Source: Nannocystis bainbridge (GTDB taxonomy: Bacteria > Myxococcota_A > Polyangia > Nannocystales > Nannocystaceae). From it: a stretch of DNA of 64,000 bases. The notes beneath the pieces were generated by a model. It did no database searches. It had not been told where the DNA came from and saw nothing but the letters and a program-made list of their open reading frames with translations. Position 1 is the first letter of the stretch, and the number at the start of each line of letters is the position of its first letter. Position numbers and translations under genes: made by a program. This document shows positions 1,590 to 63,567 of the stretch, in pieces. The stretch spans positions 992,001 through 1,056,000 of the forward strand of contig NZ_JAQNDL010000001.1 of the NCBI RefSeq assembly GCF_028368995.1, given 5' to 3'.

Positions 1590-1827
1590 ACGCTCGCAAG
1601 CGGACCCACCGGCCCTTCCTTGAGGATCAGCCGAGCGTCGAGACGCATCGGCCACGAGCTGTCCCTTTGGACATGAGCCGCGAGGTCCACGCCAAGAGCG
1701 TCGCCAACCCGCTGATGTTCCGCAAGCTGCGGCGCGAGGACGAACCCAGAAGCAGCCGCGCGCCGCCGACCTCTCGTGGCTGCTGACCGCGGCTACAGCG
1801 ACGAGGCGGCGCTCAACCTGGTCGGCG
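1590..1827 (+). pseudogene. Collapsed remnant of a duplicated Rieske gene 3' end and DUF434 gene 5' part
   Basis: About 1591-1738 matches 3600-3747, about 1739-1764 matches 3781-3805, and about 1765-1827 matches 3915-3978, with substitutions and deletions. Confidence 0.85.
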
Positions 1828-1898
1828 GACGGTGGATACGAATTTGTTGGTGCGACACGGTCACGGGTTGAGTCCAGACCGGAGAGTATTCTTTCACC

Positions 1899-2696
1899 GT
1901 GCAAGGCACCCTCAAGATCGCCATCCTTTCCCTTCTCCTCGGGGGATGCAAAGGTGCGAGACCCATTCCCCCCGAGTCCGTTCCGACATGCGGTGCCCCC
2001 GGCGAGTCGTTCGCCCAGCTCCGATGGCTACCGAGTGAGCTCGACACTCTCGTATCTGTCAAACTCTACGACTCTCGGCTGCCGATTTCTCTCGCCAGCC
2101 TGCAGGCCTTTCAGAGCGGTCCCTTCCTGAAGGACGAGCCTTGGACCCGCTTCGCCGCCGAGCTCCCGGAGTTCCGTTCGCGTCTGGCGAAAGTCCCGCT
2201 CGAGCGGGACGAGGCCATCTGGTTTCTCGTCGCCGAACGAACGAGCGTCTGGGCGGTATCAGGGGTCTGCGACCGGAAGGATTTCGATCGCATCGTTGCC
2301 ATCCTCGGACTTCGAGCGCGTAACAACGAAGAGGGAGAACTCTGGGTGGCAGACGCTCCATCCAGCGGGGAGGAGCTCGCTGTCTTGCAATTTGGGGCAG
2401 GCGGTCCGTTATGGCTCGTCCAAGCTGGACGAATCGACTCCCTTCTCCTCTGGCTCAAGAATCTGAGCGGAACGCCTCACTCTTTTTTCATCGAACACTT
2501 GGAGGACGAGCATCCCGGCGCCACGCTACGAGTCCTCCGCCTGTTGAGAGATCAGGGATTTTCACAGTACAGCGTCACCGGCACGGAGATCTTCAAGTCC
2601 GGGTTTGTTTCACACGAGCCATCACGGATGAACGCCGCCCCGATCCGCATCGTCGGCGCCGGCGTCTCCACCTGCGCCCCGTTCGCGCCGATGTAG
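1899..2696 (+). CDS. Lower-GC hypothetical lipoprotein, chimeric at its C-terminus
   Basis: Lipobox LLLGGC; many A/T-ending codons; last 20 aa (AAPIRIVGAGVSTCAPFAPM) come from repeat copy 2. Confidence 0.65.
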   Translation: MQGTLKIAILSLLLGGCKGARPIPPESVPTCGAPGESFAQLRWLPSELDTLVSVKLYDSRLPISLASLQAFQSGPFLKDEPWTRFAAELPEFRSRLAKVPLERDEAIWFLVAERTSVWAVSGVCDRKDFDRIVAILGLRARNNEEGELWVADAPSSGEELAVLQFGAGGPLWLVQAGRIDSLLLWLKNLSGTPHSFFIEHLEDEHPGATLRVLRLLRDQGFSQYSVTGTEIFKSGFVSHEPSRMNAAPIRIVGAGVSTCAPFAPM

Positions 2697-2790
2697 TCCG
2701 CGCGCCCCAGGCCCGCGTCCCTCCCCCGCGCGGCGGCCCGTCCGCCGCGCGGCGTGGCGCCCGCCCGCGCCCGCGTGCTACACCGCGGGC
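2634..2790 (+). repeat. Direct repeat copy 2 of 1425-1581
   Basis: Direct comparison; leads straight into the Rieske GTG start. Confidence 0.95.
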
Positions 2791-3831
2791 GTGCTGCAGA
2801 ACTTCTGGTACGCCTGTCACCGCGCGTCCGAGATCGGCACCCAACCGGTCCGCTTGCGCGCGCTCGGCCACGAATTCGTGCTGTGGCGCGACGGCGACGG
2901 CCGGGTCGTCGCCCTCGACGACCGCTGCCCGCACCGCGGCGGCTCCCTGTCTCAAGGGACATGCTCGAACGGACACGTCGTATGCCCGTACCACGGCTGG
3001 GCCTTCGCCGCCGACGGCGCCTGCGTGCACATCCCGGCCAACACCGGCGACGCCCGCATCCCTCGCAAGGCCCAGGTCCGCAGCTACCCGACCGAAGAGC
3101 GCCACGGCTGGGTGTGGCTGTTCGTCGGCGACCTGCCCGAGGCCGAGCGCCCGCCGATCCCGCCGCTGCCCGAGTACGGCCAGCCGGGCTGGAAGGCCAT
3201 CCACGGCGAGTTCCTCTGGCACGCGCACTACACCCGCGTGGTCGAGAACGGCATGGACATCGCCCACGCCCCGTTCGTCCACTCGCGCTCGTTCGGCAAC
3301 CCCGCGCACCCCGAGGTCGCCGACTACACCGTCGAGCCGCACCCGTGGGGCGCCAGCGCCTCCGTCGAGTTGGTCGCCCCGCCGCCGAGCGGCCTGTGGT
3401 CGCTGGTGCTGCCGAAGCAGCGCCCGCCGGTCAAGACCCGCGTCGCCTTTTACATGCCCTGCTACACCCGCCTCGACCTCGACCTCGGCGGCATGAAGAT
3501 GATCGTCTTCAACAGCAACATCCCGGTCGACGACGAGCACACCCTGACCCGCTGGATCATGCTGCGCGACTTCTTCACCGGCGCCTGGGCCGACGGCAAC
3601 GCCCGCAAGCGGACCCACCGGATCTTCCTCGAGGACCAGCCGATCGTCGAGGCGCAGCGGCCACGAGCTGTCCCTTTGGACATGAGCCGCGAGGTCCACG
3701 CCAAGAGCGACGCCATCCCGCTGGTGTTCCGCAAGCTGCGGCGCGAGTGCCTGGTCGAGCGCGGCTGGGGCCTGCGCTGGGACGAACCCGAAGCCGCCGC
3801 GCCCGCGCCCCTGGTCGCCCTCCGCACATGA
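2791..3831 (+). CDS. Rieske non-haem iron oxygenase alpha subunit (VanA/KshA-like)
   Basis: Rieske motif CPHRG...CPYHGW and mononuclear iron motif ENGMDIAHAPFVH. Confidence 0.92.
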   Translation: MLQNFWYACHRASEIGTQPVRLRALGHEFVLWRDGDGRVVALDDRCPHRGGSLSQGTCSNGHVVCPYHGWAFAADGACVHIPANTGDARIPRKAQVRSYPTEERHGWVWLFVGDLPEAERPPIPPLPEYGQPGWKAIHGEFLWHAHYTRVVENGMDIAHAPFVHSRSFGNPAHPEVADYTVEPHPWGASASVELVAPPPSGLWSLVLPKQRPPVKTRVAFYMPCYTRLDLDLGGMKMIVFNSNIPVDDEHTLTRWIMLRDFFTGAWADGNARKRTHRIFLEDQPIVEAQRPRAVPLDMSREVHAKSDAIPLVFRKLRRECLVERGWGLRWDEPEAAAPAPLVALRT

Positions 3832-13793: not shown

Positions 13794-14009
13794 ATGTCGC
13801 CCGTGGCGCATCAGCGGCTGTTCGCCGTCCTCACGGCCGCGCTGATCGTCCTCCACATCGACCCCTGGAACGCCGGCCCCGGCCCGCTCCTGTTCGGCTG
13901 GTTGCCGTGGGACCTCGCCTACCACCTGGCGTGGATGGCCGCAGGCACCCTCCTGGTGCTCTACATGACCTCGCGCGCGATCTGGCCCGACGACCCGGAC
14001 GACCCATGA
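13794..14009 (+). CDS. Small two-TM membrane protein (DUF3311-like SSS partner)
   Basis: LH.DPW...PLLFGWLP..LAYH..W; lies directly upstream of a solute symporter. Confidence 0.75.
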   Translation: MSPVAHQRLFAVLTAALIVLHIDPWNAGPGPLLFGWLPWDLAYHLAWMAAGTLLVLYMTSRAIWPDDPDDP

Positions 14010-14094
14010 CCGCGCACATGTCCCCAAGGACATATAACATGTCCGAAAGACCATCCCCGTTCGCTCCCGGGACGCCGCGCCCGCAGGACCGTCC

Positions 14095-19169: not shown

Positions 19170-19231
19170 AGGACATGCCGCCAGAGACATGAGCCTCGGG
19201 ACAGGCCCTTCGGGGCATGTCCCGAGGTTCA
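19162..19231. repeat. Phased 14-bp palindrome array, 5 units
   Basis: TGCCCTGAAGGACA TGCCGCCAGAGACA TGAGCCTCGGGACA GGCCCTTCGGGGCA TGTCCCGAGGTTCA; fills the gap between convergent genes. Confidence 0.9.
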
Positions 19232-19232
19232 G

Positions 19233-20348
<1,116 letters not shown>

Positions 20349-22876: not shown

Positions 22877-22879
22877 ACG

Positions 22880-22949
22880 CGCTCTCGGGGACATGTCCCC
22901 GTGGACATGTCCCTGTGGACATGCCCCGGTGGGCATGTCCGAAGAAACA
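22880..22949. repeat. Phased 14-bp palindrome array, 5 units
   Basis: CGCTCTCGGGGACA TGTCCCCGTGGACA TGTCCCTGTGGACA TGCCCCGGTGGGCA TGTCCGAAGAAACA; between convergent genes. Confidence 0.92.
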
Positions 22950-24568: not shown

Positions 24569-24653
24569 TGTCTCGTCACGCATGTCCCGCTCGCCATACG
24601 CCCTCGATCCGCCCAGGCCGCGACATGTCCATTCGGACATGTCCTGATCGCCA
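24569..24653. repeat. Two pairs of 14-bp palindrome units in a divergent promoter region
   Basis: TGTCTCGTCACGCA TGTCCCGCTCGCCA (24569-24596) and TGTCCATTCGGACA TGTCCTGATCGCCA (24626-24653). Confidence 0.75.
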
Positions 24654-24831
24654 TGCGCCCCGCGAGCCATGCACCGCCTCGGCTCGCTCTCGCAGCTGTT
24701 CCCGCCCACCGGCGAGCGGCCCGCGCCGCCTGCGCGAACCCGCCCCCGCGCCCTCTTGAACGCCCTTCCCGTCCCTCTCGGCTCCGCGCGCTCGCCCCTG
24801 CGTCCGGGCCGGTCTATCGTCTCCTGGGAGC

Positions 24832-27045
24832 ATGCCGGCCGTCCGAGTCCACGACGCCTCGCCCGACGACGACCTGTTCGCCTACCTCGCGCGCACCGGC
24901 GGCGACGACGTTCGCCGGGCCCAGCTGATCGGCGCTGCCAACGCCTTCAAGGAGGGTGACGCCGCGCTCGGCCTCGCCGCGGCCGACATGTCCTCGCGGA
25001 CAGCCGCGCGCCGGCTCCTCGCCGCCACCGCCGTCGGCCGGCTCGCCGCCGCCCCGCTGTTCCGCGACGGGCTCCACGACGCCCTCGCCGCCGCCCTCGA
25101 CCCACGCGCCGCGGCCCACGTCTCGACCTGGTCTTTGGGCCAGCTCAAGACCTTCGTGCTGACCGCCGACGAGGCCGAGGTCAACCAGCTGCTGCCCGGC
25201 CTCGCCAGCGACGTCGTCGCCTGCCTGGTCAAGATCATGAGCGACGCCGAGCTCGTCGCTCTCGGCGCGCGGCTGTTCCACCCGCTGCCCGGCAGCCGGC
25301 TCGGCGCGCGCGGCTACCTCGGCGCACGGATCCAGCCCAACAGCCCGACCGACCACCCCGACGACATCCGCTGGCAAGTGCTGGCCGGCTGGTCCTACGC
25401 CGTCGGCGACGTCGTGCTCGGCACCAACCCCGTGTCGTCCGACCCGCGCTCGGTGGCCGCGGTCGAGGCTGTCCTTTGGGACATCCTGGTCGATTTCGGC
25501 CTGCAGGACACCCTGCCCCACTGCGTGCTCGCCCACATCGAGGTCCAGGCCGCGGTCGAGCGCGCCGCCCCCGGCACCACCGGGATCTGGTTCCAGAGCA
25601 TCGCCGGCTCCGACGCCGCCAACGCCACCTTCGGCCTCGACCTCGAGGGTCTGCGCCGCCACGCTCGCGGCCGCACCGGTCGCTGGGGCCTGTACTTCGA
25701 GACAGGTCAGGGCGCCGACTTCACCAACGGCCACGGCCGCGGCGTCGACATGGTCGTCCACGAGGCCCGCAAGTACGGCCTCGCCCGCCTGCTGCGGGCC
25801 GACGTCGCCGACGCTCGCCGCCGCCTCGGCCTCTACCCGGAGCCGTGGGTCCACGTCAACGACGTCGCCGGCTTCATCGGCCCCGAGGTGTTCCGCACCC
25901 GCGACCAGCTGGTGCGCTGCTGCCTCGAGGACATCGCCATGGCCAAGCTGCACGGCCTGATGATCGGCCTCGACGTGTGCGCCACCCTGCACATGGACAT
26001 CGGCCTCGACGACCTCGACTGGTGCCTCGAGCGGATCGCCCCGGCCTGCCCGGGCTACCTCATGGCCCTGCCGACCAAGAGCGACCCGATGCTCGGCTAC
26101 CTCACCACCGCCTTTCAGGACCACGTGCGCCTGCGCGAGCGGTTCGGCACCCGCGTCGACGATCGCATGTGGGAGTTCTTCCGCGACCGCCTCGGCGTCG
26201 TCGATGCGCGCGGCCGGCCGACCGCGCGCTTCGGCGATCCGGTGTGGGTCCACCTCCAGCTGTGCCGCGCCCGCGGCGACGTCCGCCCGGACGACGTCAT
26301 CGCCGGCGAGGGTCGGGCCGCGCTCGCGGCCGTGCGCGCCCGCGGCGTGGCGATCGGCGAGGGCCACGGCGACCGCCCCTGGGACCTCCCGCCTGCCCTC
26401 GACGCCGAAGTCCGCGGCCTCTGCGACGACGCCAAGCACAGCCTGCGCGCCGAGTGGCGCGCCGAGTTCGTCAGCAAGATCCCCGGCGCCCGGCGCCTCG
26501 CCACCTGCGCCGGCGACCGCGACGAATACATCCTCCACCCGCCCACCGGCGAGGCGCTGAGCCCCGCCGCGCTCACCGAATTACATGTCCTTAAGGACAG
26601 CTACGCCGGCCGCTTCGACACCGTCCTGGTCGTGTCCGACGGCCTCAACGCCCGCGCGCTGATGGACGACGAGCACCTGTTCCCGTTCCTCGATGTCCTG
26701 GTCCCCGAGCTGCGCGCCGCCGGCTTCGCGCCCGCGCCCGACGTGTTCGTGCTCGCCGGCGGCCGCGTCCGCGCCGGCTACGCCCTCGGCGCGGCCCTGT
26801 TCGCCGATCTGCCCGGCCCGCGGCGCCTCGTCCACGTCATCGGCGAGCGCCCCGGCACCATGCACCACGCCTTCTCCGTCTACCTCAGCGCCGCCGACGG
26901 CCTGGCCTGGGCCCGGCCGCGCGGCGTCGACCACCACCTCACCCGCGTGATCTCCGGCGTCGCCGACACCGCCTATCTACCGGCCCGGGCCGCGCGCGAG
27001 GCCGTCGCCATCCTCCAGGACATGCCCTCGAGGACATGCCCCTGA
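24832..27045 (+). CDS. eutB: Ethanolamine ammonia-lyase, fused large (EutB) and small (EutC) subunits
   Basis: EutB: RIQPNSPTD, GDVVLGTNP, CVLAH, FQSIAG, YFETGQG, NDVAGFIGPE, GLDVC. EutC: DRDEYILHPPTG, VSDGLN, GRVRAG, IGERPG. Confidence 0.88.
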   Translation: MPAVRVHDASPDDDLFAYLARTGGDDVRRAQLIGAANAFKEGDAALGLAAADMSSRTAARRLLAATAVGRLAAAPLFRDGLHDALAAALDPRAAAHVSTWSLGQLKTFVLTADEAEVNQLLPGLASDVVACLVKIMSDAELVALGARLFHPLPGSRLGARGYLGARIQPNSPTDHPDDIRWQVLAGWSYAVGDVVLGTNPVSSDPRSVAAVEAVLWDILVDFGLQDTLPHCVLAHIEVQAAVERAAPGTTGIWFQSIAGSDAANATFGLDLEGLRRHARGRTGRWGLYFETGQGADFTNGHGRGVDMVVHEARKYGLARLLRADVADARRRLGLYPEPWVHVNDVAGFIGPEVFRTRDQLVRCCLEDIAMAKLHGLMIGLDVCATLHMDIGLDDLDWCLERIAPACPGYLMALPTKSDPMLGYLTTAFQDHVRLRERFGTRVDDRMWEFFRDRLGVVDARGRPTARFGDPVWVHLQLCRARGDVRPDDVIAGEGRAALAAVRARGVAIGEGHGDRPWDLPPALDAEVRGLCDDAKHSLRAEWRAEFVSKIPGARRLATCAGDRDEYILHPPTGEALSPAALTELHVLKDSYAGRFDTVLVVSDGLNARALMDDEHLFPFLDVLVPELRAAGFAPAPDVFVLAGGRVRAGYALGAALFADLPGPRRLVHVIGERPGTMHHAFSVYLSAADGLAWARPRGVDHHLTRVISGVADTAYLPARAAREAVAILQDMPSRTCP

Positions 27046-27078
27046 GACCATGCCCCCGGGGACATGTCCCCCGGGCCA
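27009..27078. repeat. Phased 14-bp palindrome array, 5 units, overlapping the eutBC stop
   Basis: CATCCTCCAGGACA TGCCCTCGAGGACA TGCCCCTGAGACCA TGCCCCCGGGGACA TGTCCCCCGGGCCA. Confidence 0.9.
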
Positions 27079-27865: not shown

Positions 27866-27922
27866 CCCGCCGAGGCTAGCGGACCGCCGGGCGGCCGACA
27901 ACGCTCGCCCACGCGCGCTACA

Positions 27923-27949
27923 TGTCCTTCAAAACATGTCCTGCGGACA
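27923..27949. repeat. 14-bp palindrome pair (second unit 13 bp)
   Basis: TGTCCTTCAAAACA TGTCCTGCGGACA. Confidence 0.75.
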
Positions 27950-29265: not shown

Positions 29266-29348
29266 GCGACCTCAGCCTAGCGCGCCCGCGCCCCTGCGTC
29301 ACGGCGCGCGAACGCGCGCATCGGCGCCTTCGCCGCCGCAATTCTGCA

Positions 29349-29515
29349 TGACCTTACGGACATGCTCCAATCGCCATGCCTCGATGGACATGACCTCAAG
29401 GGCATGTCCGGGCGACCATGTTCGCCCGCCACGGATCAGCTCGGCTCGCCGTCGAGCCCTGATACTGGTGACATGCTCCCGAGGACATGGCCGATCGGCC
29501 ATGTCCCGGGCGCCG
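29349..29515. repeat. Longest phased 14-bp palindrome array (about 12-unit register, 9-10 recognisable units), upstream of dinB
   Basis: Units start at 29349, 29363, 29377, 29391, 29405, 29419 (13 bp), then two decayed units, then 29460, 29474, 29488, 29502. Confidence 0.88.
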
Positions 29516-31253: not shown

Positions 31254-31374
31254 GCCGGCCCGGCGTGGGCCCGCACTTGTTGCCCCATACAGAGCCCGGA
31301 CCGCTCAGGTCGACGAAGCGCCCCTCCGATGTCGCACGCCCTCGGCGTGATGGGCCGTCCCGAGCGGCACGGCA

Positions 31375-31444
31375 TGACCATCACGACATGTCCGAAAGAA
31401 CATGCTCATTCGAACATCATCTTTATGACATGTTCGTGCGGCCA
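31375..31444. repeat. Phased 14-bp palindrome array, 5 units (AT-rich variants)
   Basis: TGACCATCACGACA TGTCCGAAAGAACA TGCTCATTCGAACA TCATCTTTATGACA TGTTCGTGCGGCCA; between convergent genes. Confidence 0.88.
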
Positions 31445-32900: not shown

Positions 32901-35900
32901 TTACTCGGTGCGCGCCATCAGCCAGCGCGTCAGACCATCTCTGTCTCTCGGGACATCCGCGGCCCGGCCCAGCGCCTCTGTGAACGGCCCGGGGGCGTCC
33001 CCACGGGTCGGCGCCAGCAGGCCCAGGCCGAGCGACCTGACGTGGAGCTCCTGCTGCAGCACGACGATCTCGCCGAGCACGAGGTCGAGCCGCAGCACCG
33101 AGTCGTCGACGTCGTGGATCAGCAGCTCGTCCTCGGCGACGAACGCGAGCTCCTGGGCCCCTGCGGGCAGCAGGTGCTCGCGGCCCGGGTCGTCCGCGCC
33201 CGCGAGCACCTGCACCCCGTAGCCCGCGGTCGTCACCGCCACGAGCGCGCCGCTCGGGCTGAACGCCAGGCGAGGGTACGGCTCCAATAGCAGCGACCGG
33301 CGCGTCACCACGCCGTCCTCGTAGAACGCCAGGGTGTCCGTCCCCTGCAGCGCGATCGCGGCTGCCGAACCGCGCGGGTCGAGGGCCACGATCGGCGGGG
33401 TTCCGCTTCGCACGCCACGCACGCCGCCGATCAGCACCGGCGCGCCGTCGCCGACGTGCAGGCCGAACACCATGTCCGAGCTCGTGTGCGCGATCAGGTC
33501 GGTGCCCGTCGCGGTGGCCCACAGCTGCAGGACCTCACCGTCGAGCTGCCAGCGCGCCGGCGGGCCCGCGCCGGTGAACGCGAGCACGGTGCCGTCGGCC
33601 AATCCGAGCGCGTACGTGTCCCCCGACTCGGCCAGCGCGACCGCCCGGACCGGGTCATCGGCGGCGATGATCGAGCCGACGCCGTCGCCCTCGATCAGGC
33701 AGGCGCCACGCTCGCGGCCGACGATCAGCGCCCGGCCGCGGCCGTCGCAGGCCCGACGTGACGGCCGCCCATAGTCTTGGACCAGATCGAGCTGCAGGGG
33801 ACACATCACGCGGCTGCGGCGGCCGTCGCGGATCCGCACGAGCTCGGGCTCGCCGCGGCCCCCGAGCGAGACGGCGATGGCGTGGCTGTCGTCGGGCGCA
33901 GCCGCGAGCCACCTGTCCTTCCGGACATGTGGTAAAGGCTCGGGCCGCCACCACCATAGATCACGGCCCCGCGTGCCGACGAACCCCCCGTCAGTCGTGA
34001 ACGCGCCGCGCTCGTGCTCGCCGCCGGCCAGCGCGCGGAAGATCCGCCCGCTCTCCACCGACCACAACAACCAGCGACCGTCATAGCGGCTCGCAAACCG
34101 ATCGCCGGCGTCGGCCACCGTGAGCTCGCTCTGGCTCTCGGCGAACGCCTGCCGCTGCGCGAAGGAGCGGTAAAGGTCGGTCTCCCACAGCGACTCCCCT
34201 GACTCGAGATCGATCCGCACCAGCTGCGGCTCGTCCATGCTCGGGGGGAGGTCCGGCCGCTTGCGCAGCACGAGCGCCCGATCGTCGCGCGAGATCGCCA
34301 GCGGGCGGCCTTCGAGCGGCCGCGTGGTGCCGTCGCGCAGAGACAGCGCCTTGCCGGGCTCGAGCAGCCACAGCCCGCTGGGCGCGAACATCGTCGGAAT
34401 GCGCAGGTCAGGGAGCGGTGTGATCTCGTCGCCCGTCACCAGGAGGGCCGTCTGCTGCACACCGCTGACGGCGATCGAGCGCCCATCGGGGCTCATCGCG
34501 GCCCGGAGGGACCGCGGGAACGGCAGCGCGGTCATCGGCGCCGGCCGCATCGTCAGGTCCCAGGTGTAGGCCGCCGCCGGGTCGAGCCACCCGAGTCCCA
34601 TCACCCCGAGCGACGCCAGGGTCTCGCCGCCCCGCGACATCTCCCATCGGTGCGACGTGAGCCCGGCGCCGATCGGCAGCGACGACAGATCGATCGCCTC
34701 CGGCGCCTCCTCGCCGCGGACGATCACGCCGTGCGATCCGGCCAGCGCCGCCCACACGGGCGCCTCGGCGGCGGCGACCACCGAGCCGAACGGCGCCGCC
34801 AGATCGATCACCGATTCGCCGCGACCTGTCCCCAAGTTCCAGCGCCGCACGACCCCGCCGCCGTCGATGCTCACGAGCCCGCCGTCGGCCAGCGGCGCCA
34901 CGCGCTCGACCCGCCGCGCGTGCCCGCGGAGCACCCGATCCGGCGCGCCGCGGACGATCGCCGCGACGGCGACGGCGCGGGCCCTCCGAAGGTCGAGCGG
35001 ATCGCTCAGGTCGACCTCTCGCAACAGTCGCAGCGCCTCGGCCGGATCGTCGTCGAGGCCGCCGCGCGCCTGCGCCAGCACCGCGTCGTTGGCTCGCCGC
35101 CGCGCCTCGGCCTCGGCTGCCTCCGCGCGCGACCTGGCGGCCTCGAGCCCGCGCACGTACACGATCGACCCCGCCGCCACGGCCACCAGCACCGCCGCGG
35201 CCGCCGTCACCGCGACGCGATGACGCCTGAGCCACAAGCGCAGCAGCTCGCCCGCCTGATAGCGGTGCGCGTCGACCAGCCGCCCGGCCGCGAACCGCCG
35301 CAGATCGTCGGCCAGCGCCGCCGCCCCGGGATAGCGATCACCTGGCCGCGGGGACATGGCCTTTTGTGCGATCGCCACCAGCTCGCGCGGCGCCTCGGCG
35401 GCCAGCGGACGCAGGTCCTCGACCTCCTCGGCGAGCAGGCGCTCCAGCAGCTGCGACGCCTCCAGCGACGCGTGCGGCGGGCGCCCGGCCAGCACGTGGA
35501 ACAGCACCGCGCCGAGCGCATAGACATCGGTGCGAGCATCGACCGTCGCGCCGCGGGCCTGCTCCGGCGGCATGTAGCGCAGCGTGCCGACGACCGCCCC
35601 GACGCCCGTCGCGTCGCCCGCCGCGGCTGCGCCCTCGCCCGCCGACTCGCCGGGCTGCGCCGCTCGGGTGTCCTTGGCCAGGCCCCAGTCGATCACCACC
35701 GTCTCGCCGTGCGGGCCGATCAGGATGTTGCTCGGCTTGAGGTCGCGGTGGACCACCCCGTGCTGGTGCGCGTACGCGATCGCGTCGGCGGCCGCGAGCA
35801 CGTGCGCCACCAGGCCGATGCGCCCGCGCAGGCTCGGCTCGTCGGCGATCACCCGCGCCAGCGACTCGCCCTCGACCAGCTTCATGCAGTAATAGGGCTC

Positions 35901-36317
35901 GCCGTCGGCGAAGGAGCCCACGTCGTGCAGCGGCACGATCCCCGGGTGCTGCAGCCGCGCCGTGATGCGGGCCTCGAGCGCGAACCGCCGCGCCGCCTCC
36001 GGGTCGCGCCGCCGCAGCGTCTTGATCGCCACCGTGCGTCCCAGATGGCGATCGTATGCGCGCCGGATCACCCCCAACCCGCCGGCCGCGAACACCTCGC
36101 CGATCGCGTAGCGCTCGTCGCCCTCCGGCCCGTCCGCCGCCTCGGACGCGTCACTCAGGCGATCGACGCGCGCCAGCAGCCGCGCCCGTGCTTCGCGGAT
36201 CGCCGTCGAGGGCGCGGGGTCGGGGTGGAGTGCGAGCGCGGGCACGTCGGATGGGGCCTCGCTGGACATGTGCCGCGACGGCGGCTCGTGATCCCCGCCC
36301 CCCGATCTTTTTTTCAC
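32901..36317 (-). CDS. Ser/Thr protein kinase with TM segment and WD40-like propeller
   Basis: VAIK, ARLQHPGIV, HRDLKPSN, DWGLAK, GTLRYMPPEQ, DVYALG; VLRGH repeat; GTGA overlap with the sigma gene. Confidence 0.92.
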   Translation of the reverse strand: MKKRSGGGDHEPPSRHMSSEAPSDVPALALHPDPAPSTAIREARARLLARVDRLSDASEAADGPEGDERYAIGEVFAAGGLGVIRRAYDRHLGRTVAIKTLRRRDPEAARRFALEARITARLQHPGIVPLHDVGSFADGEPYYCMKLVEGESLARVIADEPSLRGRIGLVAHVLAAADAIAYAHQHGVVHRDLKPSNILIGPHGETVVIDWGLAKDTRAAQPGESAGEGAAAAGDATGVGAVVGTLRYMPPEQARGATVDARTDVYALGAVLFHVLAGRPPHASLEASQLLERLLAEEVEDLRPLAAEAPRELVAIAQKAMSPRPGDRYPGAAALADDLRRFAAGRLVDAHRYQAGELLRLWLRRHRVAVTAAAAVLVAVAAGSIVYVRGLEAARSRAEAAEAEARRRANDAVLAQARGGLDDDPAEALRLLREVDLSDPLDLRRARAVAVAAIVRGAPDRVLRGHARRVERVAPLADGGLVSIDGGGVVRRWNLGTGRGESVIDLAAPFGSVVAAAEAPVWAALAGSHGVIVRGEEAPEAIDLSSLPIGAGLTSHRWEMSRGGETLASLGVMGLGWLDPAAAYTWDLTMRPAPMTALPFPRSLRAAMSPDGRSIAVSGVQQTALLVTGDEITPLPDLRIPTMFAPSGLWLLEPGKALSLRDGTTRPLEGRPLAISRDDRALVLRKRPDLPPSMDEPQLVRIDLESGESLWETDLYRSFAQRQAFAESQSELTVADAGDRFASRYDGRWLLWSVESGRIFRALAGGEHERGAFTTDGGFVGTRGRDLWWWRPEPLPHVRKDRWLAAAPDDSHAIAVSLGGRGEPELVRIRDGRRSRVMCPLQLDLVQDYGRPSRRACDGRGRALIVGRERGACLIEGDGVGSIIAADDPVRAVALAESGDTYALGLADGTVLAFTGAGPPARWQLDGEVLQLWATATGTDLIAHTSSDMVFGLHVGDGAPVLIGGVRGVRSGTPPIVALDPRGSAAAIALQGTDTLAFYEDGVVTRRSLLLEPYPRLAFSPSGALVAVTTAGYGVQVLAGADDPGREHLLPAGAQELAFVAEDELLIHDVDDSVLRLDLVLGEIVVLQQELHVRSLGLGLLAPTRGDAPGPFTEALGRAADVPRDRDGLTRWLMARTE

Positions 36318-37007: not shown

Positions 37008-37091
37008 CGCCCAACGGGACATGTCCGCCTCGACATGCTCCGAAGCACATGCCCGATGAGACATGCCCCTTACGACATGTCCTTCGCGCCA
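37008..37091. repeat. Phased 14-bp palindrome array, 6 units, upstream of the ECF sigma gene
   Basis: CGCCCAACGGGACA TGTCCGCCTCGACA TGCTCCGAAGCACA TGCCCGATGAGACA TGCCCCTTACGACA TGTCCTTCGCGCCA. Confidence 0.92.
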
Positions 37092-37137: not shown

Positions 37138-38655
37138 TCACTCGCGCCCGAGCGGAGGCAGCTCGCCGCACACCAGCTCTTCCGCGTACAGGTAGCCGAA
37201 GAAGCGCGCGCGGCCCGTCTCCGTGTCCGCCACCAGCACGGACATCGGCCGTGGGTCGTGACCTGCACGGCATTGCGCGCGGGACAGCACGAACTCGCGC
37301 AGCGCCCTCGCCTCGGTCGCGATCGTCTGGTTGACCGCGGCCGGCCCCGGGTCGAAGCGGGCCAGCTGGTGCATCGGCCCCGCGCCTGGCACGAACAGAT
37401 CGGCCTCCTCCACGCGCCAGCCTGCTTGTGGCTGGGCCAGCTCCGGGCTGGCCAGCAGGTCGCCGACGCTGGCCAGGCGGCTGCGGGCCTCGAGCAGGTC
37501 GGCGCCGGTGAAGCGCCAGCGGCGGGGCGTGCAGATATCCTCGAGCACGGCATGCACCTCGGCCACTGCGCCGAGGCGGTCGGCCAGGGTCGACCAGTCG
37601 CGGTCGAGCGCCGCCGTCGCGGCCTCCGCCGCATCGCGGCCGAGCTGGCGCAGCTCGCCTGGATAATCGCGGCCGACCAGCATCGGGCAGCGCTCGGACA
37701 GCGCCAGCCCCGGCTCGGGCGCCGCCACCCGGGCCCCGCCGGCCGACAGCACCACCCGCGGCGCCACCGGGCAGCGGTCGGCCGACGCGCAGGTCGCGTA
37801 TGGCTGCACGTACTCCCAGTAGGCCCGGCCGCACTCGTACCTGGCCCTCGCGTCAGGTTCGCTCGGCGCCTCGGCCCCGGCGAAGGCCCGCAGCTCCGCG
37901 TGGATCTCCGGCACGAACGCCGCCAGCTCCGCGCTGTAGTAGCGCCACAGCAGCGCGTCCGCGTGGTTGAGGAAGCCCTCGAGCTGCGCCAGCCCCTGCT
38001 CCTGGCCCTCCGCCAGGGCCCGGATCGCCGGCTCGCAGCCGCCGACGCGCGCGGCCGGCAGCGCCTTCCAGGCCGTCAGGTCGATCGGCGCCGCGTCGAC
38101 GCTGACGATCGATATGGCGCTCGGGTCATGTCTTTGCAGCCATGTCCTTTGGAGCAGGATCCCATCGGCCCGGTAGCGCGGGCGGCCGGCCCCCGGCTCG
38201 CGCGCGGCGGTCAGCGCCGCCGGCTGGGCCACGATCGCCGCCTGCTCGGCCTGGCGCACGCTGGAGATCCGCAGCGCCGGGCTCAACGCCTGCAGCGCCG
38301 GGCCCACGCGCGCGTCCCAGCCGGCCAGGCCCGGGCCGAGCAGCACCTCGACCGTCGGCGAGGCCGTCAGCGCGGTCGCCAGCGCCTCCGCGTCGCCGGC
38401 CGTCAGCGTCGGCGGCGACCAGGCCACCGCCAGGCTCGGCAGGCCGAGCCCGGTGCGCGGCGGCGGTGGCCCGCCTGGAAGCTGACTCTGGCTGCCGAGC
38501 GCTGGCACGGCCGCCCCGGTGCCTGGCCGCGGCCCGCACGTCAGCGTCGCCACGCCGGCCAGGATCACCCCTGCCGCGCGCGTGCCCGACCTGCGGGGCG
38601 CGCCGCGGCGTCGCGCGTCCGCGCGAGCGAGGCGATGGGAGGAGCCGCCAGCCAC
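37138..38655 (-). CDS. Hypothetical exported protein
   Basis: 505 aa ORF with plausible composition and Cys pairs; start uncertain; contains three motif units at 38115-38156. Confidence 0.7.
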   Translation of the reverse strand: MAGGSSHRLARADARRRGAPRRSGTRAAGVILAGVATLTCGPRPGTGAAVPALGSQSQLPGGPPPPRTGLGLPSLAVAWSPPTLTAGDAEALATALTASPTVEVLLGPGLAGWDARVGPALQALSPALRISSVRQAEQAAIVAQPAALTAAREPGAGRPRYRADGILLQRTWLQRHDPSAISIVSVDAAPIDLTAWKALPAARVGGCEPAIRALAEGQEQGLAQLEGFLNHADALLWRYYSAELAAFVPEIHAELRAFAGAEAPSEPDARARYECGRAYWEYVQPYATCASADRCPVAPRVVLSAGGARVAAPEPGLALSERCPMLVGRDYPGELRQLGRDAAEAATAALDRDWSTLADRLGAVAEVHAVLEDICTPRRWRFTGADLLEARSRLASVGDLLASPELAQPQAGWRVEEADLFVPGAGPMHQLARFDPGPAAVNQTIATEARALREFVLSRAQCRAGHDPRPMSVLVADTETGRARFFGYLYAEELVCGELPPLGRE

Positions 38656-40651: not shown

Positions 40652-41369
40652 CCCCCTCGCCGCGGCCCTCGCCGCGCTCGCGCTGGCCGCCGCGCCGGCT
40701 GCCCCTGCGAACATGTCCCCTGCGCCAGGTCCCTGGGAACCTGTCGCTGTGGACATGTCCCCTGAGACACCCTTCGGCCCGCTGCCCGCGACCTCGGGCC
40801 AGCCGCGCCCGGCCCCGAGCCCGCCCGGCCCCGCGGCTCAGCCCGCGAACGGCCCCGCGAACGGCTCCGCGCCCCCGCCTGGTCCGGGCCCCGCCGCCGG
40901 GCCTGGCGCGCGCACGCCGACGGCGACCTCGCCCGGCCTGGCGACCCCCGGCATGCCCGGCCCCGCCTCTGCGCCTGTCCCTTCGGACAGGCCCACCGAA
41001 GCTGTCCACCCGGCCAGCCCGCCGGTGCCCGCCGAGGCCGTCGCCGGGCCGCCGCTGGTCGAGGGCCCCGCCCCGGCCCCCGGCGGCCGCCTGTGCCACG
41101 GCTCGGGCGCCTGTCGTCGCCTGCTGATCCTCGGCGGCGTGGCGGGCGGCCTCGGCCTCGGCGCCATCGCCACCGGCGTCGCCCTGCTGGCCCGACCGCT
41201 CGCGCTCGATCCCGAGGACCCGACCGCGCTCGTCACCTACCGCCCCGCCGGCGCCGCCCTCCTGGCCGTCGGCGCCGGCCTGGCCGCCACCTGGCTCCTC
41301 ACCCTGCTCGCCGCCCGCAAGGCCGGCCGCCTGGCCCAGCGCCTGCGCGCCGCAGTGGCTGTCCCGTGA
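40641..41369 (+). CDS. Pro-rich hypothetical membrane protein
   Basis: Signal-like N-terminus, Pro/Ala linker, two C-terminal TM segments; overlaps the upstream stop. Confidence 0.6.
   Translation: MAVSPLAAALAALALAAAPAAPANMSPAPGPWEPVAVDMSPETPFGPLPATSGQPRPAPSPPGPAAQPANGPANGSAPPPGPGPAAGPGARTPTATSPGLATPGMPGPASAPVPSDRPTEAVHPASPPVPAEAVAGPPLVEGPAPAPGGRLCHGSGACRRLLILGGVAGGLGLGAIATGVALLARPLALDPEDPTALVTYRPAGAALLAVGAGLAATWLLTLLAARKAGRLAQRLRAAVAVP
40700..40769. repeat. Phased 14-bp palindrome array, 5 units, inside a CDS
   Basis: TGCCCCTGCGAACA TGTCCCCTGCGCCA GGTCCCTGGGAACC TGTCGCTGTGGACA TGTCCCCTGAGACA. Confidence 0.85.
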
Positions 41370-42507: not shown

Positions 42508-42565
42508 GCCGCGACCCTATGCAAACGCGGGCTCGCGCGCCAGCGCTCCCGGGCCGAGCGATACA

Positions 42566-42661
42566 TGACTCCAAGGACATGTCTCGAGAGACATCCATTC
42601 CCTCGCCGCCGCGAGCGCCCGCTGTCGGGTCCCCCGCCGCCACGACATGTCCTTGAAGACA
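42566..42661. repeat. 14-bp palindrome units in a divergent intergenic region
   Basis: TGACTCCAAGGACA TGTCTCGAGAGACA (42566-42593) and TGTCCTTGAAGACA (42648-42661). Confidence 0.8.
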
Positions 42662-46739: not shown

Positions 46740-47786
46740 ATGCGTCGCACGTGGACGGGGTTGGGGCTCGGCGTGGCGCTGTTCGTCGCGCCGTGGGGCT
46801 ATGCGCGGGCGTGCTCGTGCGGGCGCGACATCGTCGGCGCCGGGCGCCTCTACCTCGGGGCCGGCGACGTGCTCCCGCCCGACGCGACCGGGTTCCCGTG
46901 GTTCGGCCCGGAGTCGCTCGTCGGCGCGCCCGAGCGCGTGAAGCTGGTGCGCATCGACGGCAAGCGACGGGTGCCGGTGAAGTTCACGATCGTCAAACAG
47001 AGCGAGATCGAATTCATCGTCCCGGCGCAGCGGCTCGAACCGGGCCAGATCTTCGAGGTCACGGTGCGCGAGAGCGACAGGGCCACCGACTCGCGGCAGT
47101 ACTGGCGCGACAAGAGCGAGCTGCCGCCGATCGACTTCACGACCCGCGTGACGATCGGCGCCGAGCCGCTGCGGCTCACCGGGGTCAGCCTGCGCGTCGG
47201 TGAGCCGACGAACGGGACCGCGAAGGTCGCCGCCTCCGGCTCGTGCTGGGAGGAGTTCGCCGCGGTCGAGAAGCCGCTCCGCGTCGAGCTGCCGCCGGAG
47301 CTCGAGCCGATGCGCGACTACCTGCTCTACACCACCAGCGTCGACGGCCTCACGTGGGACCACGCGCCCAGCCTGTGCGCCTCGATCGATCCGGGGCGCA
47401 CCTGGGCTGGCGAGGCCGGCACCGACAAGCTGTTCGCCGTCTGCGGCCCGCGCGACAAGCACGCGGTCGACGACACCAAGTTGCTCGGCAGACAGCGCCA
47501 GTTCCCGCAGCCGGGCCCGCACCGCGTCGAGGTCCGGGTGGCCACGCCCGACTACGCCCAGGTGCTCACGACGGCGGCGATCACGGTCGAATTCTCGTGC
47601 CCGGCGAAAGAGGCCGCGCCCGCCCAGCCGGCGGCGTCGACCCCCCCGCCGAGGCCGGCGAACGAGCCGGCCCAGCAGCCCGAGCCTCCCGCCCGCGAGG
47701 CGCGTGGCTGCGCGATCGGTGAGCCCGGGTTCGCGTGGGTCCTGGGCCTGCTGGGGCTCGGGCGTCGGCGTCGGCGTCGGCGCTGA
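46740..47786 (+). CDS. Secreted protein with MYXO-CTERM-like tail
   Basis: Signal peptide ending ARACSC; C-terminal GCAIG...hydrophobic...RRRRRRR. Confidence 0.85.
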   Translation: MRRTWTGLGLGVALFVAPWGYARACSCGRDIVGAGRLYLGAGDVLPPDATGFPWFGPESLVGAPERVKLVRIDGKRRVPVKFTIVKQSEIEFIVPAQRLEPGQIFEVTVRESDRATDSRQYWRDKSELPPIDFTTRVTIGAEPLRLTGVSLRVGEPTNGTAKVAASGSCWEEFAAVEKPLRVELPPELEPMRDYLLYTTSVDGLTWDHAPSLCASIDPGRTWAGEAGTDKLFAVCGPRDKHAVDDTKLLGRQRQFPQPGPHRVEVRVATPDYAQVLTTAAITVEFSCPAKEAAPAQPAASTPPPRPANEPAQQPEPPAREARGCAIGEPGFAWVLGLLGLGRRRRRRR

Positions 47787-47795: not shown

Positions 47796-47823
47796 TGGCC
47801 ATCACGACATGTCCCTCTGGACA
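47796..47823. repeat. 14-bp palindrome pair at a convergent gene junction
   Basis: TGGCCATCACGACA TGTCCCTCTGGACA followed by TGTTCC. Confidence 0.8.
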
Positions 47824-48320
47824 TGTTCCTCGCTAGCCCCGCCGGCCTGCGCGTCGGCGAGGCCGAGGAATTCGCGCAGCGCCACGGCCCTGGAGATCAG
47901 GTCGTCGGTGGTCGAGGTCGAGGTCAGCGGGTGACGCTCCTCGCCCAGCACGATCACGATGCGCGCCGTGCCGTCGTCGGTCTCGACCGCGACATCGGTG
48001 ATCGCCGCGCGCCGCAGCGTCCGCCGCTCGGGCGCGCGGCGCAGCCGGTGATACGTCAACACCACCTCGTCGCCCACGAGCGCGACCTCGACTCGAAGCA
48101 CCCACGTGGCGAGCCCGAGCCCGCCGAACGCGGCGCAGAAACCGGCGGTGATCAGGGTGCCGAACAGGTTGCGTATGGACGGCTCGGCGAAGAACTTCCC
48201 CACCGACACGAAGATCAGCGGGACGAGCACCAGGCCCACGAGCATGAACACCACGCTCGTCGAGCCGCGCTGCGGGTGCAGGGTGAGCACGCGCGGGGAC
48301 GTGGTCGCCAGCTCCGTCAT
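47802..48320 (-). CDS. Membrane protein with two TM segments and a PH-like C-terminus
   Basis: Two hydrophobic segments; ITDVAVE...RIVIVL...PLT. Confidence 0.7.
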   Translation of the reverse strand: MTELATTSPRVLTLHPQRGSTSVVFMLVGLVLVPLIFVSVGKFFAEPSIRNLFGTLITAGFCAAFGGLGLATWVLRVEVALVGDEVVLTYHRLRRAPERRTLRRAAITDVAVETDDGTARIVIVLGEERHPLTSTSTTDDLISRAVALREFLGLADAQAGGASEEHVQRDMS

Positions 48321-60094: not shown

Positions 60095-60260
60095 GCCCGC
60101 GAGCCCGCGCGCGCGGCTCGAACGCCCGCGCGCGGCCGTGACCGAGCCTGCGGGTGCTCGCACCCGATCTGTCCGAAAGGACAGGCCACACCGGCGCGTC
60201 GGCGACCGGGTGCGCGGACGCGACTGCGCCGCGGCGTCGCCTCGTGATAGCGTCGCGCGC

Positions 60261-61660: not shown

Positions 61661-61690
61661 GTCGAGCTCGCCAGCGCAGGCGAGCTCGAC
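61661..61690. terminator. Stem-loop / REP-like element
   Basis: GTCGAGCTCGCC-agcgca-GGCGAGCTCGAC perfect 12-bp stem after the stop codon. Confidence 0.6.
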
Positions 61691-61751
61691 ACTGCGTCCC
61701 GAACCCCGACGCGCCCGCGCTTGCTAGACTCGGCCCAGGGAAGTCGCGCGC

Positions 61752-62681
61752 ATGACGATCGAGATCTTGCAGACCGGCCCGCTGCCCGAATCATGCGAGC
61801 GAGCGCTGGCCCAGCGCTTCACGCTGCACCAGCTGCACGCCCAGCCCGATGCGCGGGCGTGGCTCGCCGCTCACGGCCCGCGCATCCGCGCCCACGCCGG
61901 CGCGGGCGTGCAGGCGTCCCTGCTGGAGAGACTGCCCAACCTCGAGATCATCGCCGGCTTCGGCGTGGGCGTCGACAGTATCGACATTGTCGCCGCCAGG
62001 GCCCGCGACATTCGTGTCACCAACACGCCCGACGTCCTCGACGACGCGGTCGCCGAGCTGACCCTCGGCCTGATGATCGCCCTCGCGCGACGGATCCCCC
62101 AGGCCGATCGCCACGTGCGCGCCGGCCTGTGGCAGCGCGGCAATTTCGGCCTGTGCTCCGAGCTGACCGGCAAGACCGTCGGCATCCTCGGCCTCGGCAG
62201 GATCGGCAAGGAGATCGCCGCGCGCGCCCAGGCCATGAAGATGCGCGTCGTCTATCACGGCCGCCACCGCCAGCCGAGCGTGCCGTACATCTATTATGAC
62301 GTGCTCGAGGACATGGCCCGCGACAGCGAATGGCTGGTGGTCATCGCCCCGGGCGGCAAGGGCACCGAGCGGATCGTCTCTCGTCGGGTGCTGGAAGCGC
62401 TCGGCCCGAAGGGCATGCTCGTCAATGTCGCCCGCGGCTCGCTGGTCGACGAGCCGGCCATGATCGAGCTGCTGCAAAACGGCGGCCTCGGCGGCGCCGC
62501 GCTCGACGTGTTCGAGCACGAGCCGCAGGTCCCGGCGGCCCTGCTCGCCCTCGACAACGTCGTGCTCTCGCCGCATCAGGGCAGCGCCACCCGGCAGACG
62601 CGCGAGGCCATGGGCGCGCTGCTGGTCGCCAACCTCGAGCGGCATTTTGCAGGGGAGCCGCTGCTCACCGCGGTGGTGTGA
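61752..62681 (+). CDS. D-isomer-specific 2-hydroxyacid dehydrogenase (hydroxyphenylpyruvate/glyoxylate reductase-like)
   Basis: GVGVDSID, VTNTPDVL, GILGLGRIG, VNVARGS.VDE, ALDVFE.EP, SPHQGS. Confidence 0.95.
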   Translation: MTIEILQTGPLPESCERALAQRFTLHQLHAQPDARAWLAAHGPRIRAHAGAGVQASLLERLPNLEIIAGFGVGVDSIDIVAARARDIRVTNTPDVLDDAVAELTLGLMIALARRIPQADRHVRAGLWQRGNFGLCSELTGKTVGILGLGRIGKEIAARAQAMKMRVVYHGRHRQPSVPYIYYDVLEDMARDSEWLVVIAPGGKGTERIVSRRVLEALGPKGMLVNVARGSLVDEPAMIELLQNGGLGGAALDVFEHEPQVPAALLALDNVVLSPHQGSATRQTREAMGALLVANLERHFAGEPLLTAVV

Positions 62682-62736
62682 CCGGCTCGCGTTTGGCCCA
62701 GGGGCGCGGCGGCGGCCGAGGTGGTACGAATGGCCC

Positions 62737-63567
62737 ATGCGAATTTATTATGCGTGGATCTTTCTTGCAGCGGCCGCCTGCGGACCCAAGACCCCGAGCG
62801 GCGAGACCGACGGCGATGCTTCGACCGGCACCGTGACGACCGGTGACGCCGAGCCGACCACCACGACCTCCGCGAGCACGACGACCGAGGGCGACGAGAC
62901 GACCGGCGCGAGCGAGACCGGCGAGCCGCTGCCGATGTGTCCGGCGGCACAGACCCCCGAGGTGATGTTCGCCGTCGAGGGCTTCGGCGACGAATTTCAG
63001 GGTCACGTCCGGGCCTCGTGCACCGTCGAGGGCGGCTCGATCGGCGACGCGATGGATGCGGTCGAGCTGGCGTGCGACGTCGACGGCACCGAGGTCCAGG
63101 TCGCGGTGCGCTTCCTCAACGCTGTCGTGACGCTGCCCGCGGCTCTGCAGCAGCCCGAGGCCCCGGTGTCGCTGCGGTACGTCCGCGCCGACTACGAGTA
63201 CCGCGGCGAGTGGCTGGCGCTCGGCGATTTCCGCGACGTGTTGCTGCTCGGCCTGGCCGCCGGCAACAGCCCGCTGCCGTTCGTCGAGGGCGAGGGGCAG
63301 ATCCAGGACATGTTCGCGCCGGTCACCGTCGAGGCGCAGGGCGGCTTCTGTCCCAAGGGACAGGGGAGCTGCTTCGCTCTCGGCGAGCCGGCGGCGCTGC
63401 AATTCTCCAGCGGCGACGACATGACCGAGGTGCTGCCGCTGCAAGCGGGAGCGCTCGGTCCTTACGCGATCCAGGCCGGCGCCTCGTGGCTGTCCGACCC
63501 CGAGAGCGCGTACGAGTGCGACGGCCCGGGCGACGACTGGGCGGCCTTCGCCCTGGTGCGCCCGTGA
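62737..63567 (+). CDS. Hypothetical lipoprotein with Thr linker
   Basis: FLAAAAC lipobox; Cys-containing mature domain. Confidence 0.78.
   Translation: MRIYYAWIFLAAAACGPKTPSGETDGDASTGTVTTGDAEPTTTTSASTTTEGDETTGASETGEPLPMCPAAQTPEVMFAVEGFGDEFQGHVRASCTVEGGSIGDAMDAVELACDVDGTEVQVAVRFLNAVVTLPAALQQPEAPVSLRYVRADYEYRGEWLALGDFRDVLLLGLAAGNSPLPFVEGEGQIQDMFAPVTVEAQGGFCPKGQGSCFALGEPAALQFSSGDDMTEVLPLQAGALGPYAIQAGASWLSDPESAYECDGPGDDWAAFALVRP

Follow-up and report, generated by a model that had tools for sequence, protein, structure and literature searches.

A CATG-centered repeat with a strict 14-bp period at gene ends of Nannocystis: arrays of candidate protein-binding sites

A 64-kb stretch of a Nannocystis genome (here called the window; C1:992001-1056000 of genome G000, an assembly of 11,048,555 bp in 5 contigs with 71-72% GC) contains many copies of a short palindrome, TGTCC-N4-GGACA. 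This 14-mer is the most frequent register, spanning one spacer, of a repeat built of GGR-CATG-YCC and four further bases that vary almost freely, i.e., (GGR-CATG-YCC-N4)n. The repeat is confined to one genus, Nannocystis by record titles, and its arrays are concentrated between convergent genes. We interpret the arrays as possible markers of transcription-unit ends to which a protein binds cooperatively, a reading that we hold tentatively and at somewhat less than an even chance.

A preliminary description of the window, made from its letters, had reported 14 perfect copies of TGTCCNNNNGGACA as a candidate signal. All of the listed starts (14/14) are exact, and the window holds no further perfect copies; dinucleotide-preserving shuffles of the window (n = 100) contained a mean of 0.07 perfect 14-mers and a maximum of 1. 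The variants it listed are likewise present at the positions given (16/16), each with 1 or 2 mismatches, and sites with at most one mismatch number 38 in the window, versus 1.84 ± 1.35 in the shuffles. The 14-mer is thus a real signal, but the description missed that it is merely one register of a CATG-centered repeat with a 14-bp period. The A/T-rich spacer that it noted is correct within the window (33/56 bases, or 59%), but genome-wide the share is merely 39.6% against a background of ~28.5%, and the spacer preference is Y-Y-R-R, not plain A/T.

Across the genome, TGTCC-N4-GGACA occurs in 1987 perfect copies, and the same half-sites at any other spacer (N0 to N3 and N5 to N12) give 0 to 16 copies each (N3, 16; N5, 5). 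When every 5-mer inverted repeat with a spacer of 0 to 12 was scanned blind, the motif came first, and the next-ranked entries were shifted registers of the same repeat. Its extended logo reads (A/G)C(A/C)-TGTCC-YYRR-GGACA-(T/G)G(T/C), and GGACA directly abuts TGTCC at 956 places. Pairs of CATG peak at spacings of N10 (3736) and N24 (2073), with 62 to 476 at each remaining spacing from 0 to 30; thus, the repeat has a strict 14-bp period. Period-14 runs comprise 1265 of two CATG, 328 of three, 213 of four, 159 of five, 75 of six, 22 of seven, and 4 beyond. Runs of at least three CATG number 801 at period 14 and 0 to 8 at periods 12, 13, 15, 16, and 17.

The CATG is the best-kept part of the repeat, with GG and CC retained at ~75%, and a CATG lies on one or both sides of 752/1165 intergenic perfect sites and 332/804 coding ones. 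In the tally of one-mismatch sites, the G of TG hardly ever changes, the T and the first C are also strongly kept, T is accepted in place of the second C, and the middle T of the half-site varies almost freely. The correspondingly relaxed pattern, TGNCY-N4-RGNCA, has 6858 copies genome-wide versus 242 to 540 at other spacers. Half-sites alternate in orientation along clusters. There is no conservation around sites beyond ~20 bp, and the arrays lack defined ends.

Genes were called with a purpose-written codon-statistics caller (8186 genes on 83-86% of the DNA), for which stops are exact and starts approximate. Intergenic DNA makes up ~15% of the genome and holds 1165 of the 1987 perfect sites; 804 are coding and 18 fall at a gene edge. 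The preliminary description had placed sites in promoters, convergent junctions, and mid-gene alike, which is wrong. Perfect sites occur at 1.63 per kb in convergent spacers, 0.62 to 0.70 in tandem spacers, 0.20 in divergent spacers, and 0.086 in genes. Arrays of 3+ units are distributed still more unevenly, at 1.54, 0.30 to 0.33, and 0.057 per kb of convergent, tandem, and divergent spacer, respectively, a 27-fold difference between the first and the last. Counting spacers of 50 to 300 bp that hold a site or a CATG pair, we found the motif in 667/984 (68%) convergent, 521/2192 tandem, and 64/828 (8%) divergent spacers. Most arrays of 3+ units are intergenic (691/801), and few are in coding DNA (51/801). 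Within tandem spacers, 454 sites lie closer to the upstream stop and 158 closer to the downstream start, with 141/614 no more than 20 bp from the upstream stop. A relaxed site occurs within 150 bp past the stop in 2358/8183 genes and before the start in 796/8182. The motif is therefore an element of gene ends, accompanied by scattered single copies within genes. The description was right that this is no promoter-confined operator, divergent spacers being the poorest in sites among the spacers.

Copies inside genes also exceed expectation. Synonymous-codon shuffles (8184 genes, 8 rounds) retained 16 to 33 perfect in-gene copies (about 24) versus 804 observed, and 564 to 614 relaxed sites versus 3016 observed; single in-gene sites are thus 33x over-represented against the codon null. 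A lack of enrichment over such a codon-aware null had been named in the preliminary description as grounds for abandoning the signal, and the motif passes this test because its in-gene copies far outnumber those in the shuffles. Coding sites are evenly spread along gene length. Between relatives they change by point substitution, synonymous and in some cases amino acid changing, and their density drops 12-fold over codon-bias deciles, from 0.191 to 0.016 per kb, toward the strongest bias. A 1486-aa called gene with a Pro/Glu/Ala-rich repeat region (C2:2066053-2070511) carries ten relaxed sites in repeated codons; these are copies produced by protein-repeat duplication and not independent sites.

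Relaxed sites average 62 ± 22 per 100 kb (variance, 507) over all five contigs. Their density correlates with GC content (r 0.59), and its troughs are low-GC, low-skew bins. The site-poor 100-kb bins lie at C1:1,100,000-1,300,000, C1:500,000-600,000, C2:1,800,000-1,900,000, and C5:400,000-500,000, with a GC content of 0.686 to 0.707, weak GC skew, and 11 to 19 relaxed sites versus the mean of 62. Such bins are probably recently acquired DNA. No ori/ter pattern of site density was seen across the five contigs. Nor do the sites resemble nucleoid landmarks (parS, matS, and the sites of Noc and SlmA), which number in the tens and are limited to or excluded from ori or ter; here, sites occur on all contigs. 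Separately, a convergent spacer at C1:3253270-3253760 is filled by a ~38-bp tandem repeat whose unit contains TGACC-N4-GGACA and a second GC-rich inverted repeat.

Comparison with relatives indicates that intergenic arrays stay at the same junctions while their sequence turns over. Four same-genus genomes are syntenic with window positions 1 to 46,500 at about 84 to 91% identity. For one relative, G010, we compared arrays over ~450 kb, in which 278 spacers were examined and orthologues obtained for 174. The G010 orthologues of 28 spacers with a run of at least three CATG have a run of at least three in 16 cases, of two in 9, and of one in 3; among the orthologues of 129 spacers with a run of 0 or 1, none has three and 3 have two. 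Aligned identity is 0.76 for CATG, 0.67 for its flanks, 0.50 for the spacer, and 0.68 for other bases of array-bearing spacers. Because alignment of periodic DNA is unreliable, we rely on the presence and position of arrays. Neighboring units share 4.48/10 variable bases, and random units share 4.18; identical neighbors make up 1.2% of pairs versus 0.01% of random pairs. Since neighbors are nearly as unlike as random units, the arrays are not products of recent slippage. Their fixed positions are held by constraint or ongoing conversion.

Among 30 relatives, the 14-mer occurs in 10/10 same-genus genomes at 114 to 2090 copies (reversed-pattern control, 1 to 6), in two other genera of the family at 87 and 161 copies, and in the remaining 18 genomes at 0 to 7. 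Runs of three CATG number 1670 in the window's genome, 1005 to 1162 in five large same-genus genomes, 2 to 62 in five smaller, fragmented same-genus genomes, and 0 to 4 in the 20 genomes outside the genus. We also scanned one genome per species (185,579 species) for GGACATGTCC-N4-GGACATGTCC, which retrieved 78 stretches: 64 in Nannocystis-titled records, 9 in a Nannocystaceae metagenome-assembled genome (MAG), 2 in a Myxococcales MAG, and 3 elsewhere. These counts bear out a lineage-specific signal, with thousands of copies limited to one genus. The claim that the motif is undescribed also stands, in that a literature search for the motif or for repeats of the genus gave nothing relevant, with subscription journals and supplements outside its coverage. 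The array expansion may be younger than the 14-mer, or arrays may have been lost in fragmented assemblies.

The five smaller genomes form a more distant clade, as a comparison of D12-class methyltransferase sequences shows: identity to the enzyme of the window's genome is 93 to 96% in the five large genomes (each with >1000 triple-CATG runs) and 66 to 71% in four of the smaller ones, with no match in the fifth. Genome G013 was rejected as a second host of the arrays, as it has merely 4 triple-CATG runs and 8/22 of its ATGTCC-N4-GGACAT sites, all with an identical spacer, lie in one transposon. This multicopy element (at least 2.8 kb; copies 96 to 99.8% identical at loci L063, L067, L068, and L071) encodes a Mu/Tn7-like transposase (rve, Mu-transpos_C) and an AAA_22 ATPase. 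Genome G011, from another genus of the same family (61.7% GC), is without CATG arrays and has an iterated palindrome of its own, TGCA-NN-TGCA (e.g., loci L027-L036). The latter occurs 46 times in 200 kb versus a median of 3 at other spacers, or about once per 4 kb; TTGCANNTGCAA has 280 copies genome-wide in G011, versus 5 for the reversed control and 0 to 20 in 30 other genomes.

In the interpretation introduced above, a symmetric, probably dimeric, sequence-specific protein would read the repeat as double-stranded DNA, with neighboring protein copies binding cooperatively, one per 14 bp. Arrays of 3 to 12 units would form high-occupancy platforms just past stops, mainly at convergent genes, and these platforms might act like protein-bound BIMEs, serving as roadblocks, as insulators, or for the handling of supercoils where transcription units end. 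The same protein would bind isolated in-gene units as weak single sites, which are tolerated where codon bias is weak and avoided in genes where it is strong. We infer all three components (protein reading, cooperative binding, and the gene-end role) from the statistics of the repeat. A bolder proposal, which we regard as somewhat unlikely, is that the protein polymerizes in 14-bp register on arrays marking ~2/3 of the convergent junctions of an 11- to 13-Mb chromosome, a protein-based punctuation of transcription units through roadblock termination, insulation, or supercoil relief, with the thousands of in-gene single sites serving nucleoid organization or self-recognition. To our knowledge, no such general, array-based gene-end code has been described in bacteria.

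Whether the repeat is read as duplex or as a hairpin bears directly on this interpretation. At pair 3/12 of the intergenic sites, 1165 are perfect, and one-sided changes to C or G (251+218) outnumber compensatory ones (122); one-sided transversions number 118+173 and 104+73 versus 28 and 9 compensatory (468 versus 37 in all). Complementarity across the spacer in 2471 array unit pairs is close to expectation at each position (observed/expected, 0.43/0.41, 0.58/0.56, 0.57/0.58, 0.31/0.27, and 0.28/0.27), and these pairs show no covariation. Outside the core, no complementarity of more than ~5 bp was found. Among one-mismatch variants within 150 nt past stops, 236 stay G-U paired in the sense RNA and 207 become C-A. 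The spacer tetramers have no orientation relative to transcription. The GC-rich hairpin plus T-run of an intrinsic terminator was not found at arrays, where no T-run lies alongside (A and T are each 0.09 to 0.18 at 16 to 45 bp), and the best 44-nt fold energies do not differ between motif-bearing and motif-free spacers (medians, -24.1 and -23.9 kcal/mol). On balance, we favor duplex recognition by a symmetric protein whose copies would abut at CATG, with pairing playing a minor part at most. The strict spacing, independent half-sites, and lack of pairing covariation fit the dimeric reading of two half-sites suggested in the preliminary description; the roles it proposed, for a chromosome-organizing protein or as an uptake or self mark, are putative. 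Stand-alone GGACATGTCC decamers were dropped as proof of duplex recognition, most of the 327 having degenerate partners.

Several observations weigh against the protein-bound arrays. Intergenic symmetric doubles exceed independence (122 versus 47, 105 versus 63, and 34 versus 7.7), an excess of 1.6 to 4.4x that is not seen in coding sites. The first flanking pair is complementary at 0.60 versus 0.50 expected (convergent spacers, 0.69 versus 0.52), and at pair 3 G-U outnumbers C-A by 96 to 60. The bases flanking CATG are less complementary than expected (0.316 versus 0.418), which would not be expected of a simple symmetric dimer bound to the decamer. The post-stop location is shared with terminators and REP elements, and a roadblock alone does not explain the over-representation of single sites in genes. 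CATG identity between species is no higher in array-bearing spacers than the 0.75 of array-free ones; therefore, it is the array that is conserved, and not clearly each unit. Finally, no binder was found. PF03551, the profile of PadR regulators, has 0 matches in this genome, so that a PadR regulator was rejected as the reader.

Some of these observations would suit REP- or terminator-like hairpins, in which RNA or single-stranded DNA stem-loops, ACAUGUCC-N4-GGACAUGU, terminate transcripts arriving from either side or shield the 3' ends of mRNAs, and in-gene copies are by-products. The strong bias to post-stop DNA and convergent junctions, the tandem-spacer sites so near upstream stops, and the near-exclusion of arrays from genes all agree with this reading, as do the symmetric doubles and flank complementarity in excess at intergenic but not coding sites and the G-U preference at pair 3 in sense orientation. 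Canonical hairpin-plus-T terminators are also few in window positions 19000-38999 (8 versus 3.0 ± 2.1 in shuffles), with none at an array-bearing gene end. We nevertheless consider hairpins unlikely. The loop is fixed at 4, which is not a hairpin requirement, and it is the sequence of the stem (CATG, GG, and CC) that is conserved, not its pairing: one-sided mismatches mid-stem (5 to 8 bp) are common, the unit pairs lack covariation, and the overall balance of G-U and C-A variants is nearly even. Neither a T-tract nor a difference in fold energy accompanies the motif, and the many in-gene copies are evenly spread.

Other explanations dispense with a gene-end function. Under molecular drive, an uptake or self-recognition signal of the DUS/USS or Chi kind would accumulate as a receptor or nuclease favors DNA carrying the motif, with gene ends the most tolerant places. 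The genus-wide thousands of copies, the entry of the motif into genes through point substitutions, its depletion in low-GC, low-skew stretches that resemble recent acquisitions, and a density of one perfect copy per 5.6 kb, similar to that of Chi in Escherichia coli, are all in keeping with such drive, and another genus of the family (G011) has its own iterated palindrome. The genome encodes a ComEC homologue, but ComEC is near-universal and says nothing on competence; we know of no natural transformation in this genus. We judge drive to be quite unlikely, as the motif is palindromic with a fixed spacer and not an asymmetric 9- to 12-mer like DUS and USS, the uptake signals known so far and Chi all being asymmetric, and as drive alone predicts neither strict 14-bp arrays kept at the same junctions across species nor the convergent/divergent difference. 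A HIP1-like by-product of methylation or repair, in which mutation or repair is skewed toward the motif by a methyltransferase or mismatch-processing enzyme that recognizes CATG or the 14-mer, would explain a palindrome over-represented genome-wide, genes included, with CATG best kept. The genome encodes a single D12-class N6-adenine methyltransferase, which is solitary in that no nuclease gene adjoins it, as well as about ten N6_N4 methyltransferases; the profiling across relatives covered the D12 enzyme. D12 was rejected as a lineage-matched CATG methylase, since close homologues occur in 16 of the 18 family genomes searched, motif-free genera included. A Vsr-type endonuclease was not found in the genome, and repair bias leaves the periodic arrays and the gene-end bias unexplained; this origin is very unlikely. 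Least of all do we expect a transposase-copied miniature element (REP/RAYT- or MITE-like). High copy number, intergenic clusters, BIME-like alternating half-sites, and the occasional identity of adjacent units would suit it, but a six-frame search of the genome (90.5% complete) for the RAYT (Y1 transposase) profile PF01797 gave 0 matches at an E value of ≤0.001. Moreover, conservation ends ~20 bp from the sites, array ends are undefined, arrays are positionally kept between species and not present or absent, units in one array are as dissimilar as random units, and in-gene copies arise by substitution, not insertion.

Known DNA-binding proteins were compared with the predicted reader. PadR operators contain an ATGT/ACAT inverted repeat with the halves 8 to 10 nt apart (PMC3506622), and ATGTCC-N4-GGACAT is exactly ATGT-N8-ACAT. 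The motif differs from these operators in not being promoter confined, and no PadR-family gene was found here. CdbA of Myxococcus xanthus is nucleoid associated, prefers GC-rich sequence, and occupies >500 sites, both within genes and in spacers; the repeats of its motif are direct and 4 bp apart (PMC7156744). CdbA resembles the predicted reader in being a myxobacterial nucleoid protein with GC-rich sites in genes and spacers and repeats 4 bp apart, but, in this comparison of repeat arrangement, it was rejected because its repeat is direct and not inverted. Bacterial histones, as listed in a figure legend of bioRxiv 10.1101/2023.02.26.530074, include a histone-fold protein of Nannocystis exedens and others of Plesiocystis and Enhygromyxa; being family-wide on that listing, the histone-fold protein does not track the motif. 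As a lead to autoregulation, we took the 319 perfect sites found no more than 150 bp upstream of a called start, 93 of them before genes of at most 260 aa; by eye, with no Pfam scan made, genes with promoter-side sites had no shared theme.

Individual sites in the window illustrate these patterns. The perfect 14-mer TGTCCCTTTGGACA at 1660..1673 is intergenic (tandem, ++) and lies in a ~80-bp stretch that recurs, nearly identical, 2 kb away at 3669. The alignment to relatives skips from window position 1581 to 2636 with overlapping subject coordinates, which suggests a local duplication or insertion of ~1 kb near 1581-2790 in this genome. The perfect copy at 3669..3682, within called gene 2791..3831(+), is perfect in 3/3 alignable same-genus relatives. 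That at 14019..14032 starts 9 bp past the stop of called gene 13794..14009(+), and the orthologous spacer of relatives is indel rich. The convergent junction at 19174..19191 has 2 CATG at the 14-bp period, 4 bp past a stop; in relatives, CAGG replaces the first CATG at the same place. A 4-CATG array at 22892..22937, also a convergent junction, includes two perfect sites (22894 and 22908) and one relaxed site (22922), and four relatives have differing arrays at this junction. The 3-CATG run at 24624..24655, with perfect site 24626, falls in a divergent spacer by our own gene calls. However, 3/4 relatives carry an extra ~700-bp gene in this spacer (window positions 24540-24850) that is not in the window's genome or G005, so that these sites lie past a gene end there.

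Called gene 24832..27045(+) contains three perfect copies. At 24989..25002 (frame 1), 2/4 relatives are perfect and two have TGGCC. At 25470..25483 (frame 2), 0/4 are perfect, the relatives having TGCCC or TGCTC, which differ by point substitutions. At 26586..26599, a cluster of substitutions relative to three relatives makes ACATGTCCTTAAGGACA; one change alters an amino acid, and the product is ACATGTCC-TTAA-GGACA. A 4-CATG array at 27021..27066 spans the 3' end of this gene and the convergent junction, with all four CATG identically placed in 2/2 anchored relatives and differing bases between them. Tandem (--) spacers hold a 2-CATG run at 27921..27938, a 6-CATG array at 29347..29420 closer to the downstream gene's stop, and, in the same spacer as the latter, a 3-CATG array at 29472..29503; arrays of 4 to 6 units with other sequences occupy the 29347 spacer in 4/4 relatives. 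Another 3-CATG array lies at a convergent junction (31373..31404). The perfect copy at 33914..33927, within called gene 32901..36269(-), is perfect in 1/3 relatives and has one mismatch in two. The tandem (--) spacer at 37020..37079 carries a 5-CATG array, matched by 4- to 5-unit arrays at the same gene end in 3/3 anchored relatives, and a 2-CATG run at 38127..38144 is within called gene 37138..38568(-). The intergenic (++) perfect copy at 40976..40989, of the CCTG/CAGG-flanked class, is perfect in 2/4 relatives and has one mismatch in two. The 2-CATG run at 42564..42581 includes relaxed sites 42566 and 42580. That at 47808..47825, with perfect site 47810, lies 24 bp past the stop of 46773..47786(+) and over the last codons of 47802..48320(-). 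The last two perfect copies are intergenic (++; 60170..60183) and within called gene 62737..63567(+) in frame 0 (63349..63362); the latter is perfect in the sole alignable relative.

If a protein does read the arrays, the genus marks most convergent transcription-unit ends in a manner undescribed for bacteria, which would bear on how transcription is ended or insulated in very large GC-rich genomes without obvious T-tract terminators. The repeat also provides a second, independent case of the HIP1 problem, a palindrome fixed thousands of times even against codon bias, with a clearer positional signal to work from than HIP1 offers. It is a sharp genus marker, 75/78 matches of the species-wide scan being in Nannocystis-, Nannocystaceae-, or Myxococcales-titled records, and it is a candidate part, as terminator or insulator, for the engineering of these producers of natural products.

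We file the repeat as a variant of interspersed palindromic repeats and keep it outside the REP/BIME, HIP1, and DUS/USS families because a defining test of each fails. REP and BIME elements of enterobacteria and pseudomonads are short palindromes that follow genes in hundreds to thousands of copies, clustered and alternating, for which binding of proteins (gyrase, IHF) and an influence on transcript ends have been proposed. The extragenic post-gene location and the clustering are found here too. However, the unit of the present repeat is only 14 bp long, recurs at a strict period, and includes 4 spacer bases that are free to vary; no RAYT was found, the stem-loop is not conserved in pairing, and the repeat is far from absent in coding DNA, with 40% of its perfect copies in genes (804/1987). 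HIP1 (GCGATCGC) of cyanobacteria is a palindrome specific to its lineage and present in huge excess, in genes too by way of codon choice, from a cause still unsolved. Over-representation including in-gene codon choice is common to both, but the Nannocystis motif consists of two parts around a spacer, occurs in periodic arrays, and has a strong gene-end bias. DUS (Neisseria) and USS (Pasteurellaceae) are genus- or family-specific signals with thousands of copies, in genes, enriched at terminators and depleted in foreign DNA; thousands of copies in one genus are likewise seen here, whereas DUS and USS are asymmetric and form no fixed-period arrays. The short units of MetJ metboxes and omega-protein heptads adjoin one another in a strict register; each is bound by a dimer that cooperates with its neighbors, and alternating orientation is allowed. 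The Nannocystis arrays share the short abutting units in strict register; those of MetJ and omega are few and lie in promoters or plasmid centromeres, whereas here ~800 stand at gene ends chromosome-wide.

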